Below, piece by piece: positions 50,214 through 59,658 of a stretch of DNA of 64,000 bases; position 1 is the stretch's first letter; each line of letters begins with the position of its first letter. The stretch comes from a virus, in UHGV virus genome UHGV-1451962; one strand, 5' to 3'. The notes under the pieces are model-generated. The model was given only the letters and a program-made list of their open reading frames with translations, searched no databases and was not told the origin of the DNA. A program made the translations under genes and the position numbers.

Positions 50214-50273
50214 AAATACAAGATACTTTTTTTTGATTAAAAGTCAAAAAATAAATTGCTATGAGTATCTTTA

Positions 50274-50347
50274 TGGAGCAAGTAACGGGAATCAAACCCG
50301 CATCGCTGGAGTGGAAGTCCAGAGTTCTATCATTAAACTATACCTGC
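50274..50347 (-). tRNA. tRNA-Gly (anticodon TCC)
   Basis: Acceptor GCAGGTA/TACTTGC, anticodon stem-loop CTGGA-CTTCCAC-TCCAG, T-loop TTTGATT, encoded CCA. Confidence 0.75.
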
Positions 50348-50408
50348 TTATTGTTGATAGTTTTAGTAAAAACAGTATCACCACGTGAAGGTAACTATCT
50401 TGATACCG

Positions 50409-50497
50409 CGGGGCAAACTGGATTTGAACCAGTGAAACTATTGCTAGTTTGCTTGTTTTCAAGACAAGTGCAATAAGCCAAACTCTGCCATTGCCCC
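50409..50497 (-). tRNA. tRNA-Ser (anticodon TGA)
   Basis: Acceptor GGGGCAA/TTGCCCC, anticodon loop CTTGAAA, long variable arm, T-arm ACTGG-TTCAAAT-CCAGT; CCA not encoded. Confidence 0.8.
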
Positions 50498-50682
50498 ATA
50501 TTAAGGAAGGTGGAGGTAGGGCCTCACCTATAGCTGCTCCTCAATTATTCCCCTACTTTTCTGACTCTACACCCGCAGGCACGATACGTATTATACATCC
50601 GTTCAAAGTTTATTGTCATGTCAGCAAGACAAGATGCCTTTCACATCAGCTATTTCCTTTTGTTATCTATTATAATTCTGCT

Positions 50683-50759
50683 TGGTACGCCTGAAGGGAC
50701 TCGAACCCCTGGCTTACTGCTTAGAAGACAGTTACTCTATCCAGTTGAGTTACAGACGC
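50683..50759 (-). tRNA. tRNA-Arg (anticodon TCT)
   Basis: Acceptor GCGTCTG/CAGGCGT, D-arm ACTC-AACTGGATA-GAGT, anticodon loop CTTCTAA, T-loop TTCGAGT, encoded CCA. Confidence 0.85.
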
Positions 50760-50824
50760 GTATCAGTAAACTCAAGTTTATTGTTATCTTTAAAACTAAT
50801 AGTAAAGAGTATCAATTTTAAAGA

Positions 50825-50910
50825 TGGTGTGGGCGATGGGACTCGAACCCACAAGCTAGATTAGCAGCGCATTTTAAGTGCGATATGTTTTCCTATTTCA
50901 TCACGCCCAC
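50825..50910 (-). tRNA. tRNA-Leu (anticodon TAA)
   Basis: Acceptor GTGGGCG/CGCCCAC, anticodon loop CTTAAAA, long variable arm, T-arm GTGGG-TTCGAGT-CCCAT, encoded CCA. Confidence 0.8.
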
Positions 50911-51023
50911 ATGAATATTTAAGCAAGACTCATTTTTCTTCTTGATTACCAGTCAAGTGCTTTTAAGCTTTATTTGCTGTATAAGTCTTTTCTTAAATAT
51001 TATATCATATTTTTTTTAAATTT

Positions 51024-51218
51024 TCAATTTTTTCTTTTCAGTCCAAAATACTGATCTGCACGAGGAGAACCCAAATGAAATACATCCTGAGTACCAATAA
51101 GAACCAAAATATTGGCAGTATAAGGATTAATGGAATTTTTACGGATAAAATTAAGGGCCTGCTGTCTAGTTCTAAAAGTCATAGTCCAATTCTTAGCTTT
51201 AAAAATAATCTTATTCAT
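51024..51218 (-). CDS. hypothetical small protein
   Basis: 64-aa ORF with GAAAGGAGAAAATTT RBS and sigma-A-type promoter at 51248-51276. Confidence 0.4.
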   Translation of the reverse strand: MNKIIFKAKNWTMTFRTRQQALNFIRKNSINPYTANILVLIGTQDVFHLGSPRADQYFGLKRKN

Positions 51219-51247
51219 AAATTTTCTCCTTTCTTAACTTTCTATAT

Positions 51248-51276
51248 ATTATATCATTTATTTTTTAAATTTTCAA
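51248..51276 (-). promoter_or_regulatory. sigma-A-type promoter (-35 TTGAAA, 17-nt spacer, -10 TATAAT)
   Basis: Minus strand: TTGAAA (51276-51271), 17-nt spacer, TATAAT (51253-51248); about 30 nt upstream of ATG 51218; second tandem copy at about 51305-51360. Confidence 0.5.
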
Positions 51277-51361
51277 ATTAATTTATTTTGTTCAAGAAAT
51301 TTTTATTACTCTTTCCTTAACTTTCTATATATATTATAATATATTTTTATTAAATTTTCAA

Positions 51362-52009
51362 TTATTGTCCACTTGTACAAGAAGGAGGATCGGCACACGA
51401 AGTGCTTGAATTTCTTTGACAACCAGAATTACATCTTCCACAATTACCTCTATTACATTTTTCACAACCTCTATCGCAGCTTTCACAAGTATCACAAGTA
51501 ACATCACAATTTGCATTACATTTATTACATTGATCTTTTTTATATTTTAATGTATTTGCCGCAGTCTCTAAACCAGAAAAATAAGAACCTAAAAGATCAT
51601 CTCCTGGAGAAACATTAGATGCAGTACCACTATGGCCGCCTAAACCATTTAATGCTCTACTAACTGCATTAAAATCTCTTGCTCTCATAGAAGATTGAGT
51701 AATTCCACCACTACTGATACCAGGACTTCCACCATTTTTTTTAGTACCTTTAGCATAAGCATTACAAATAAATTTATAAATACTATTCCATGTACTTAAT
51801 GTAAAAAATTGTTGTCCTCTTGCAGTACAAGCTCCCCAACTAAAACTACCTACCCTTTGATGGCTATCTTCACAAAAAGATTGACAATCATTACAGCCGG
51901 AGCATTTATCACCTTTCATACAACCAGAATCACATTTTTCACAAGAATCACATGATTCGCAACTATTGCAAGATTGACATCCTGAATTACATTTTTCACA
52001 ACCCAATAG
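51362..52009 (-). CDS. Cys-rich repeat protein, putative substrate of adjacent radical-SAM/SPASM enzyme
   Basis: About 214 aa from TTG after AAGGTGGTG SD; N-terminal 45 and C-terminal 55 residues are C-x2-C/C-x3-C repeats with Cys followed by D/E/N/Q in most positions; start overlaps rSAM stop by 14 nt. Confidence 0.65.
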   Translation of the reverse strand, partial: LLGCEKCNSGCQSCNSCESCDSCEKCDSGCMKGDKCSGCNDCQSFCEDSHQRVGSFSWGACTARGQQFFTLSTWNSIYKFICNAYAKGTKKNGGSPGISSGGITQSSMRARDFNAVSRALNGLGGHSGTASNVSPGDDLLGSYFSGLETAANTLKYKKDQCNKCNANCDVTCDTCESCDRGCEKCNRGNCGRCNSGCQRNSSTSCADPPSCTSGQ

Positions 52010-58342: not shown

Positions 58343-58555
58343 TGCTGGAAGCATCTTATAAAGAAGAAAGAAAGGATAAAATAAGAAAAAACTAGACACA
58401 AAAAATTTCTTGTAAGTCTCATTATATTAAAGAAATTTTCACAAAAGATAATATAAATCATTGACATACTTTTTCATTAAATGGAGCTGTTAATAGGGCC
58501 ACAGCAAGCCGCAAATTATAATATCAGTATTATAAAATTGCTGTATGTGTCTAAA

Positions 58556-58631
58556 TGGTAGAAAATGTCAGATTTGAACTGCGACTCTAGCTCCCAAAGC
58601 TAGCGTGTTACCAGATTACACTACATTCTCT
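58556..58631 (-). tRNA. tRNA-Pro (anticodon TGG)
   Basis: D-arm GTGT-AATCTGGTA-ACAC, anticodon stem-loop CTAGC-TTTGGGA-GCTAG, T-loop TTCAAAT, encoded CCA; T-stem imperfect. Confidence 0.55.
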
Positions 58632-58725
58632 TGGCGGAAACGGTGGGTGCCGACCCCACTCGCCTATTTTCATAGACCTAACGGTTTAGCAAACCGTCCT
58701 CTTTGCCAACATTGAGTACATTTCC
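58632..58725 (-). tRNA. tRNA-Ser (anticodon GCT), atypical T-loop
   Basis: Acceptor GGAAATG/CGTTTCC, anticodon stem-loop ACGGT-TTGCTAA-ACCGT, long variable arm with GAAA hairpin, T-arm GTGGG-GTCGGCA-CCCAC, encoded CCA; abuts tRNA-Pro. Confidence 0.45.
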
Positions 58726-58845
58726 ATATAAATTAGAAATAATTATCTATCACTAATAGTAATTACTTCATCAGAAAAAATCATATCATCCAAATCCATA
58801 AGGCAGCTCTCCTTTCTATATTTAATTTTTGCTAGACTCTTTTAA

Positions 58846-58917
58846 ACCAGAAATGGGAATCGAACCCATATTTTTACCTTTTCAAGGGTAATGTCTTAAC
58901 CTTTTGACTATTTCAGA
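58846..58917 (-). pseudogene. tRNA-like sequence, probably degenerate (8-nt anticodon loop, unpaired acceptor)
   Basis: Good D-arm (GTC-AAAAGGTTAA-GAC) and T-arm (ATGGG-TTCGATT-CCCAT), but anticodon stem TTACC/GGTAA encloses CTTGAAAA and acceptor strands do not pair. Confidence 0.3.
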
Positions 58918-58947
58918 ATTAAAGAATTTTTGCTGTATGAGTCTATA

Positions 58948-59020
58948 TGGATGCAGACTTTGGAATCGAACCAAAATAACTTAGCTTATGAGACTAAGCG
59001 GAGAACCAACTCTGCCTGCA
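58948..59020 (-). tRNA. tRNA-Met or tRNA-Ile2 (anticodon CAT), compact D-arm
   Basis: Acceptor TGCAGGC/GTCTGCA, anticodon stem-loop TTAGT-CTCATAA-GCTAA, T-arm TTTGG-TTCGATT-CCAAA, encoded CCA. Confidence 0.6.
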
Positions 59021-59099
59021 ATATATAAACAAGACACTTGTATTAAAATTTTATGCCATTTTTTATTATAAAATAAATTGCTGTATGTGTCTTTTGTTA

Positions 59100-59175
59100 T
59101 GGTACTCCTAGCGGGCTACGATCCCGCGACTCTAGCTTGAAGGGCTAGCGACTTAGCCTACTTGTCGATAGGAGC
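59100..59175 (-). tRNA. tRNA-Glu (anticodon TTC)
   Basis: Acceptor GCTCCTA/TAGGAGT, anticodon stem-loop CTAGC-CCTTCAA-GCTAG, T-arm GCGGG-ATCGTAG-CCCGC, encoded CCA. Confidence 0.65.
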
Positions 59176-59186
59176 TAATTAATATA

Positions 59187-59263
59187 TGGCGGATCCAGTT
59201 CGACTTGAACGAACAACCCACGGATTAACAGTCCGTTGCGCTAACCAATTACGCTATGGATCC
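59187..59263 (-). tRNA. tRNA-Asn (anticodon GTT)
   Basis: Perfect acceptor GGATCCA/TGGATCC, anticodon stem-loop ACGGA-CTGTTAA-TCCGT, T-arm GTTCG-TTCAAGT-CGAAC, encoded CCA. Confidence 0.9.
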
Positions 59264-59351
59264 AAATTTCTTTTTTCTTTTAAAGGAACCTTTACCCTTT
59301 TTAGGTTTTACTTTACTACCTCTGCGGCGAAACTGCAAATACTCTTGAAGT

Positions 59352-59477
59352 TCATCGCCATTCTTTTTCGCCCATAAATTCTTGTTCTTCTGTTTCTTCA
59401 TAATCATTCTCCTGATTGGTAACACTACCAACTTCATCAGATTGAATCTCGCAATCAAAGGAATCCCAGTAAAACAT
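59352..59477 (-). CDS. hypothetical small acidic protein (41 aa)
   Basis: ATG 7 nt after GTTGAGGT SD and downstream of promoter-leader cassette at about 59480-59530; not in ORF track; overlaps the 69-aa basic ORF 59249-59458 in another frame. Confidence 0.3.
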   Translation of the reverse strand: MFYWDSFDCEIQSDEVGSVTNQENDYEETEEQEFMGEKEWR

Positions 59478-59658
59478 TAAATCAACCTCAACTTTCTATA
59501 AATATTATATCATAAAATTTTTAATTTTTCAAATTGAGATTTACTAGACAGTTTTAAACAAAATAAATACCTTACCAATAGGCTACTTTACAGACTTGTA
59601 AAGACAGGAATCGAACCTGCATGTCATTACTTATATAAATATTGCTGTGTCTGTCTAA

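Follow-up and report, generated by a model that had tools for sequence, protein, structure and literature searches.

Y RNAs are encoded beside the genes for Ro60, which contacts mainly the 5′ strand of the Y RNA stem (PMC4201824). The conserved Ro-binding element of Y RNAs lies on this strand and reads GNCGAA(N0-1)G or CGAA (PMC4201824, PMC12135203). Among phages, one Ro60 binds two phage-encoded Y-like RNAs (PMC12135203), and gp130 of Felixounavirus Bas63, a Ro60-like protein encoded just upstream of tRNA genes, counters the Ppl defence system (bioRxiv 10.1101/2024.10.10.617714). The RNA partners of gp130 were only guessed in that study, with Y RNAs suspected among the neighbouring tRNA genes (bioRxiv 10.1101/2024.10.10.617714). 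Here we analyse a stretch of 64,000 nt from the virus genome UHGV-1451962 (the window), in which an initial annotation, made from the letters alone, had noticed a 16-nt motif recurring within two islands of tRNA genes. We propose, with a probability of about 0.72, that this motif supplies the stem and bulge through which RNAs of a Y-RNA-like family are bound by their partners, Ro-like DUF2828 proteins.

The reported motif is genuine. The window is AT-rich (30% G+C), with almost all genes on the − strand, and ARAGORN finds 17 tRNA genes, all on that strand, in two islands at 49.6–50.9 kb and 58.1–60.3 kb. As reported on the + strand, the motif reads ATTGCTGTATG(T/A)GTCT. Because the + strand is the antisense of the tRNA genes, the transcript-sense reading was taken from the − strand, where the motif is AGACACATACAGCAAT and the consensus is AGACAC-AU-ACAGCAA-U. 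Five copies with at most two mismatches occur in the window, compared with 0.06 expected from 100 dinucleotide-preserving shuffles, and the opposite strand has none at the same threshold; the enrichment and strand bias that a word count had been proposed to confirm are thus borne out. All six copies claimed by the initial annotation are present in one orientation, all written on the + strand, and five of the six coordinate pairs are correct, the copy placed at 58927–58944 in truth spanning 58929–58944. The copy at 50255–50270 (transcript sense AGATACTCATAGCAAT) differs from the motif at four positions, and a seventh, degenerate copy was newly located at 58341–58356 (AGATGCTTCCAGCAAT). Five copies do follow tRNA CCA ends, starting 3, 3, 3, 7, and 2 nt beyond the encoded CCA of tRNA-Gly, -Pro, -Met, -Glu, and -Leu(tag), respectively, and the copy at 50973–50988, described as lying past a TATAAT box and ahead of tRNA-Leu(taa), begins 10 nt after that −10 box.

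The motif had also been described as not being a hairpin, which holds for the 16-mer alone but overlooks a partner arm, NNNUCU(U/A)G, 28–137 nt downstream of the 16-mer. Because every one of the seven window copies has such a complementary closing arm, we read the 16-mer as the 5′ half of a long-range helix in which AGACAC pairs with the downstream NNNUCU, followed by (U/A)G. The resulting unit, 52–161 nt long in the window, is laid out as a 6-bp stem, NN, ACAGCAA, an interior, the closing arm, and WG. An exact search of IMG/VR with the 16-mer found at least 119 contigs, and the counts for 119 loci given here are among the IMG/VR matches listed. At these loci the flanks recur as well: upstream lies the 3′ end of a tRNA or a TATAAT box, and downstream lie fragments resembling tRNAs.

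In the window and the 119 IMG/VR loci together, a closing 6-mer that pairs fully within 300 nt is found for 134 of 153 unique instances, compared with 34 of 153 after shuffling, and the bases that follow it are TG or AG in 124 of the 134. The closing arm mirrors variation at motif positions 4–6 (CTC in 16/16 instances, TAC in 5/5, CAG in 3/4, CGC in 3/3, CAT in 3/3, TGC in 2/2, and CCT in 2/2), and a confusion matrix of these arm positions against the closing arm is almost purely diagonal, with almost no off-diagonal entries. Within the window, a stem change from C-A-C to C-U-C in unit 3 is matched by a change from G-U-G to G-A-G, and the divergent stem of unit 5, AGAUGC/GCAUCU, is complementary throughout. 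Thermodynamic ensemble folding leaves motif positions 9–16 mostly unpaired. The pairing and the mirrored changes therefore identify the 16-mer as the 5′ arm of a long-range helix plus ~10 conserved bases. By size, the units form a short class of ~52–75 nt and a long one of ~104–141 nt. The units, their pairing, their covariation, and their tRNA-like content were computed directly, by explicit pattern scans with strand and shuffle controls in place of a covariance model, because the unit interiors do not align.

All seven units of the window lie on the − strand within the two tRNA islands, where two promoter-like sites are also found:

59544–59656, − strand: unit 1, 113 nt, begins 2 nt past tRNA-Leu(tag); AGACAG-AC-ACAGCAA-U, closing CUGUCU-AG; the interior holds a T-arm (GCAGGUUCGAUUCCUGU), a hairpin, and a D-arm-like segment (UAGCCUAUUGGUAAGG), a YrlA-type tRNA mimic
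59030–59092, − strand: unit 2, 63 nt, 7 nt past tRNA-Glu and 9 nt short of tRNA-Met; AGACAC-AU-ACAGCAA-U, A/U-rich interior, closing GUGUCU-UG
58832–58944, − strand: unit 3, 113 nt, 3 nt past tRNA-Met; AGACUC-AU-ACAGCAA-A and GAGUCU-AG enclose a "tRNA-???" called by ARAGORN
58392–58552, − strand: unit 4, 161 nt, 3 nt past tRNA-Pro; AGACAC-AU-ACAGCAA-U, closing GUGUCU-AG; long A/U-rich interior with no tRNA-like part
58215–58356, − strand: unit 5, 142 nt, newly found, ends 4 nt before tRNA-Gln; AGAUGC-UU-CCAGCAA-U with a degenerate core, closing GCAUCU-UG
50924–50988, − strand: unit 6, 65 nt, 10 nt past the −10 box, ends 13 nt before tRNA-Leu(taa); AGACUU-AU-ACAGCAA-A, closing GAGUCU-UG, stem with a U-G wobble; anticodon-arm-like interior hairpin UUGA-CUGGUAA-UCAA
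50219–50270, − strand: unit 7, 52 nt, 3 nt past tRNA-Gly, ends 5 nt before tRNA-Thr; AGAUAC-UC-AUAGCAA-U, closing GUAUCU-UG; interior hairpin UUGA-CUUUUAA-UCAA, a mimic of the tRNA-Lys(UUU) anticodon loop
59767–59795, − strand: promoter-like site, TTGACT, 17 nt, TG-n-TATAAT, upstream of tRNA-Leu(tag) and unit 1
50999–51027, − strand: promoter-like site, TTGAAA, 17 nt, TG-n-TATAAT, a strong extended −10 with 11/12 matches, which would start a transcript a few nucleotides upstream of unit 6

In the interior of unit 4, UUGCUGU (58501) complements the unit's own ACAGCAA, and the A/U-rich interior of unit 5 contains an imperfect direct repeat of ~45–50 nt (…tatagtaaatatatttctataaRgtttatta…; 58230–58320, − strand).

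The gene proposed to encode the protein partner lies next to the first island:

48020–49543, − strand: DUF2828 plus DUF7788 (vWA) gene, 507 aa, starts 55 nt past the last tRNA of island 1

The association between units and DUF2828 genes appears whether loci are selected by the motif or by the protein. Among the 119 motif-selected loci, 45 also encode a DUF2828 homologue (28–59% identity) within a few kilobases, often directly adjacent. For the protein-selected set, the DUF2828 neighbourhoods of eight cultured phage lineages were chosen by protein similarity alone, and units lie beside the DUF2828 gene, on its strand, in all eight:

Bacillus phage Tsamsa: 3 units
Listeria phage P100plus: 3 units
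Enterococcus phage EFDG1: 2 units
Felix-O1-like Escherichia coli phage finno: 4 units, in the gaps between annotated tRNAs
Mycobacterium phage OhShagHennessy: 3 tandem units after the gene, then a terminator-like hairpin and U-run (identified by eye); the middle unit is YrlA-like, 39.8 bits
Campylobacter phage F370: 2 units
Vibrio phage PVA8: 1 unit whose closing arm holds the DUF2828 AUG, and 1 after tRNA-Ser
Staphylococcus Twort-like phage: 3 units, core ACAGCYAA

The stems of these lineages are wholly different yet always paired (AGACAC, GGAAUC, GAGAGC, AGAACG, GACCAA, GAGCGC, UGGUAC, and GACAUU), and ACAGCAA and the 3′ WG are constant across them. A strict pattern applied to the window, the eight cultured loci, and a relative (L120 in our set; ENA ERZ28508866, DUF2828 protein 71% identical) gave 26 matches on the sense strand and none on the antisense strand, with 0.36 expected from dinucleotide shuffles; about two of the 26, one in a window open reading frame (ORF) at 20831 and one inside a likely ORF of the Staphylococcus locus, are probably due to chance. 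A further 35 protein-selected loci, from metagenome-assembled genomes, yielded 22 sense-strand units and again no antisense unit. The core emerges without being imposed: when only a 6-bp stem followed by WG is demanded in the protein-selected loci, the most frequent 5-mers after the 5′ arm are CAGCA, AGCAA, and ACAGC (41–44 occurrences, background at most 16), and none of the three is found among stem pairs on the antisense strand of these loci. The Mycobacterium and Staphylococcus DUF2828 loci contain no tRNA, and the linkage is therefore to the DUF2828 gene and not merely to tRNA islands.

DUF2828 is present in 704 of 50,697 phage records (~1.4%), and the closest homologues of the window protein come from animal-gut metagenome bins. 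Some GenBank homologues are already labelled "Ro-like RNA binding protein," the most specific name that these proteins carry. Pfam, at E values up to 0.01, finds only PF11443 and PF25043 in the 507-aa protein and no TROVE domain, and phmmer against PDB sequences returned nothing relevant. An AlphaFold2 model of the protein, built with 40 homologues, has a mean predicted local distance difference test (pLDDT) score of 74.6. The predicted structure is a helical-repeat ring with a C-terminal vWA domain, as in Ro60, and the top ten Foldseek matches to it are all Ro60/TROVE entries, with 9L5Y and 9KOP among the top. As modelled, the DUF2828 protein is Ro60-like by fold.

The RNA side of the comparison is drawn from the unit interiors. 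The full-length Rfam model of YrlA (RF02553, positions 1–114) aligns to unit 1 at 59657–59542 with 30.2 bits (E = 0.003 in 11 kb and 5e-5 in 200 nt), the alignment running from the motif to the closing arm, and YrlA aligns with long units of other loci at 28–46 bits. The long units often follow the order T-arm, hairpin, D-arm-like segment, which is the permuted arrangement of YrlA; T-arm and D-arm signatures are both present in 19 of 57 long units elsewhere. In the window, this T-/D-arm domain is confined to unit 1; two units have an anticodon-arm-like hairpin, one has a cloverleaf, and two have neither. An anticodon-loop-like hairpin with a 7-nt loop (YU-NNN-R-N) occurs in 15 of 65 short units, compared with 0.6% of shuffled interiors, and the 7-nt loop seen most often in short units elsewhere is CUUUUAA. 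No family in Rfam accounts for the short units, and at gathering thresholds Rfam finds only tRNAs. The YrlA alignment also draws a second helix between GCAAU and the 3′ side. This helix was rejected, and ACAGCAA is treated as a bulge, because the 3′ side is A/U-rich with almost no G and motif positions 9–16 are mostly unpaired.

Five units enclose a whole cloverleaf, namely unit 3 of the window and four units elsewhere (Lys, Asn, Asp, and Arg). The "tRNA-???" inside unit 3 (58844–58919, − strand) has a cloverleaf fold and scores 48 bits with the Rfam tRNA model. ARAGORN assigns it an 8-nt anticodon loop with the four-base anticodon tgaa; read from the sequence, its acceptor stem has a U-U mismatch, and it is followed by UUAAAA instead of the CCA in which the neighbouring tRNAs that were read end. 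It thus fails the features of a canonical decoding tRNA, which are a 7-nt anticodon loop, a fully paired acceptor stem, and an encoded CCA. Because of the 8-nt loop, the mismatched acceptor stem, and the missing CCA, it is better read as a tRNA-like module of the unit and is probably not a frameshift-suppressor tRNA.

How do these units compare with the described systems? As in the YrlA RNAs of Ro60/Rsr (RF02553; PMC4201824), the paired ends form a basal stem, directly above which sits a conserved 5′-strand element, the interior can mimic a tRNA, with T-arm, hairpin, and D-arm in the same permuted order, and the RNA genes, often in multiple copies, adjoin the gene for a ring-plus-vWA protein. 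The conserved element, however, is (A/U)Y-ACAGCAA on a stem whose sequence varies freely among lineages, whereas YrlA has GNCGAA(N0-1)G, and the units score 28–46 bits where the gathering score is 69. Most units are also short and have no tRNA-like elbow, some carrying an anticodon-arm mimic or a cloverleaf instead. The partner gene encodes a DUF2828/DUF7788 protein with no sequence-level match to TROVE, and many units sit between genuine tRNAs.

Thermus phage phiLo likewise has a protein of Ro60 fold, with Y-like RNAs, Yrl1 and Yrl2, next to its gene (PMC12135203; PDB 9KOP and 9L5Y). The phiLo protein is recognizably TROVE and its RNAs are picked by CGAA, whereas both the protein family and the RNA motif of the window differ and are known from sequence and a model. 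The DUF2828 gene of the Felix-O1-like phage finno matches the position of Bas63 gp130 and is its putative counterpart; the candidate RNAs of finno occupy the spaces between annotated tRNAs and are not themselves annotated as tRNAs. A full-text literature search found no description of RNA partners of DUF2828 proteins, although most subscription journals lay outside its reach and a prior description is possible. The units are apparently an undescribed, widespread phage family of Y-RNA-like RNAs coupled to Ro-like DUF2828 proteins, with a function that we model on that of Ro60 and its Y RNAs.

Several observations weigh against this assignment. On the protein side, no sequence-level match links DUF2828 to TROVE or to a PDB chain, the confidence of the model is moderate at a pLDDT of 74.6, and the Foldseek template modelling (TM) scores are modest (0.36–0.49). 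On the RNA side, all YrlA scores fall far under the gathering score (at most 46 versus 69 bits), much of each score is supplied by the tRNA-like arms, and the canonical Ro motif, GNCGAA/CGAA, is missing from the 5′ arm and bulge of every window unit. The percentage of paired units is a circular measure, as closing arms were found by demanding pairing, and the helix is supported by the controls, namely shuffles, antisense strand, and confusion matrix. Some of the exact matches to the 16-mer in IMG/VR have an apparently coding context and no closing arm, and not every match is therefore a unit. The linkage to the gene is likewise incomplete, as 21 of the 35 metagenome-assembled loci have no unit within ~3 kb and five of the seven window units are 9–10 kb away from the DUF2828 gene.

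The initial annotation had suggested that the motif is an RNase processing signal, a transcript-boundary element, or a DNA-binding site. A strand-specific boundary signal at the RNA level, next to tRNA 3′ ends or just after a promoter, agrees with the present results; the other suggestions fare less well. If the units were punctuation for tRNA precursor processing, they would be cleavage or protection signals for a host or phage RNase, with neither a protein partner nor a function as stable RNAs. Their placement favours such a role: five window units start 2–7 nt past CCA and four stop 4–13 nt short of the tRNA that follows, units and tRNAs are interleaved likewise in the Felix-O1-like phage finno, and, of 122 units across loci, 23 begin no more than 10 nt from a tRNA 3′ end and 42 stop no more than 30 nt ahead of the following tRNA. 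We nonetheless consider this explanation unlikely. The stem and ACAGCAA module is also found at the tRNA-free Mycobacterium and Staphylococcus loci, each with three units after DUF2828, and units often occupy the 5′ leader of the DUF2828 gene. The ACAGCAA core is kept across host phyla, being identical in phages that infect Firmicutes, Actinobacteria, and Proteobacteria, three groups with different processing RNases, and a simple spacer would have no need of tRNA-mimicking interior modules.

The leader units raise the alternative that the module is a cis operator, to which DUF2828 binds in its own mRNA leader and thereby autoregulates translation, the other copies being decoys or by-products. 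A unit directly precedes the gene in Tsamsa, P100plus, EFDG1, Campylobacter F370, and several IMG/VR loci. In Vibrio phage vB_ValM_PVA8 (L128), the unit just upstream of DUF2828 (3930–3971) carries GAGGA in the loop, and its closing arm (AAUGUC-AG) includes the AUG of the gene, a leader layout that would let the protein repress its own translation. No unit precedes the DUF2828 gene of the window, however, which is preceded by tRNA-Leu(caa); most copies lie between tRNAs, up to 10 kb away, and the units of the Mycobacterium, Staphylococcus, and Felix-O1-like phages are downstream of the gene. As a sole explanation we therefore give the operator even less weight than the processing signal, although an operator role and a Y-RNA-like role are not mutually exclusive.

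We regard it as very improbable that the units are self-cleaving ribozymes that trim tRNA 3′ trailers or elements acting at the DNA level, such as a recombination site, a miniature inverted-repeat transposable element, or a protein-binding site. Kienbeck et al. are said to have described, in 2024, theta ribozymes like that of hepatitis delta virus (HDV) adjacent to phage tRNAs, and the units, as small structured RNAs that start immediately 3′ of phage tRNAs, resemble these in placement. No ribozyme family (HDV-like/theta, hammerhead, twister, hatchet, or pistol) matches at E values up to 10 over 49300–60600. The conserved part of the units, a 6-bp stem of free sequence and 7–9 single-stranded bases, with 28–137 nt between the arms, is too small a core for an HDV-like fold, and the interior is too variable. 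The short terminal inverted repeats of the units might be expected of a DNA-level element. Against this, all copies are on the transcribed strand (antisense matches, 0 of 48), the interiors are unrelated among copies, unlike those of a transposed element, and the conservation obeys RNA pairing, including a U-G wobble (unit 50988–50924) that is meaningless in duplex DNA. A role of the motif as a promoter element was rejected: the spacing from ACAGCA to TATAAT-like boxes, judged by eye, is inconsistent among copies, and scanner matches that use the motif as a −35 box are weak.

In the Y-RNA-like reading that we prefer, the six-base arm and the closing NNNUCU-(U/A)G would close a modular small RNA of ~50–160 nt whose interior is free to vary. 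The units are probably transcribed together with the tRNAs or from their own extended −10 promoters, and they would be freed by the same cleavages through which the flanking tRNAs mature. The DUF2828 protein encoded beside island 1 would have its binding site in the stem, the ACAGCAA bulge, and the 3′ WG, and the units would be the Y-RNA counterparts of a second, phage-borne Ro-like protein family. Known Y RNAs gate or tether Ro60, and the variable tRNA-like modules of the units may display features of tRNAs to nucleases or to enzymes that bind tRNAs. We infer, on this reading, that the units are transcribed and processed into stable RNAs, that the protein binds them directly, and that they have a biological role.

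The genes downstream of DUF2828 form a cluster of the RNA-end-healing or repair type (41447–46478 and 36547–40508, − strand), which has three Metallophos phosphoesterases in all and a PhoH/PIN protein, and includes the following:

45582–46478, − strand: RlaP-like nucleotidyltransferase, weak match
44823–45569, − strand: Metallophos phosphoesterase
43018–43848, − strand: RNase_T-type exonuclease
41447–42724, − strand: RNA ligase, PF09414

As genomic context, this neighbourhood fits an RNA-damage or repair setting, and these genes may have a part in the system. In Listeria phage P100plus, an RtcB-type ligase is encoded 1.3 kb downstream of the DUF2828 gene. Also on the − strand of the window are two S-layer homology (SLH) domain proteins (46902–47963 and 33986–34783), one with a subtilase and one with a C39-like peptidase domain. 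The SLH domains point to a host with an S-layer, which is probably a Firmicute. Between the two tRNA islands lies a gene for a 414-aa radical-SAM protein (51996–53240, − strand), of which a peptide-pattern search of IMG/VR found no relatives.

The tRNA-island spacers contain further features. The 10-mer ATAGGTGAGG has two exact copies in spacers of the window, on the transcribed strand (50522–50531 and 60376–60385, − strand); as a second recurring element it was rejected, since it is not significant when one mismatch is allowed and no fetched locus contains it. Between tRNA-Arg and tRNA-Ser(tga), the spacer (50498–50682, − strand) has a promoter-like site at 50619–50590 and no Rfam match, and is 79% identical over 154 nt to 7345–7488 of an unrelated IMG/VR locus (L076), which suggests from sequence conservation that it is another conserved non-coding element. 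The 377-nt gap at 49683–50059 has no folding signal (z = −0.41), and megablast of the tRNA island against the 50,697 phage records found no match.

Individual loci elsewhere gave observations of their own. One phage contig with an ACAGCAA unit and many tRNAs (L085) carries a cow-rumen-4 RNA (3372–3439, − strand; 65.3 bits, Rfam gathering score 48.5), which is unrelated to the units in sequence and structure and was set aside. A tRNA-rich region that holds several units (L068) encodes a transfer-messenger RNA (7110–7514, − strand; 88 bits). In L120, an 813-aa protein with an MVP_shoulder domain and a faint Vault_3 match is encoded at 11931–14372, ~400 nt after the Ro-like gene. Eukaryotic vaults contain a TROVE-domain protein and small RNAs. 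The major-vault-protein-like gene was rejected as part of the system, as it occurs in L120 only and not in the window or any other fetched locus. The same relative has a tRNA with the anticodon CTA (8620–8695; an amber suppressor, labelled Pyl by ARAGORN), a hint that the phage recodes stop codons; no tRNA of this kind occurs in the window.

For annotators, these results are a caution that the gaps between phage tRNAs are not empty and that some odd tRNA calls in phage tRNA islands are probably tRNA-like modules of units such as unit 3. The unit layout, from the 6-bp stem through NN, ACAGCAA, interior, and closing arm to WG, offers a searchable signature, and it supplies concrete candidate RNAs in cultured phages, with a putative binding determinant unlike the canonical CGAA of Ro60 partners. 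Carriers of DUF2828 include widely used model and therapeutic phages, among them Felix O1, P100, EFDG1, the Twort-like phages, Tsamsa, and the Campylobacter Fletchervirus and Vibrio Schizotequatrovirus groups. A further-reaching idea, which we hold only tentatively and think more likely to be wrong than right, is that DUF2828 and the ACAGCAA RNAs form a widespread, hitherto unrecognised phage ribonucleoprotein whose interchangeable modules, built from parts of tRNAs (a Lys-type anticodon arm, a T/D elbow, or whole cloverleaves), serve as decoys, sensors, or tethers against tRNA-targeting or nuclease-dependent host immunity. If true, this would explain why gp130 counters Ppl and why the gene is found with tRNA islands and RNA-repair enzymes, and the units would be a modular anti-defence RNA toolkit rather than housekeeping Y RNAs.

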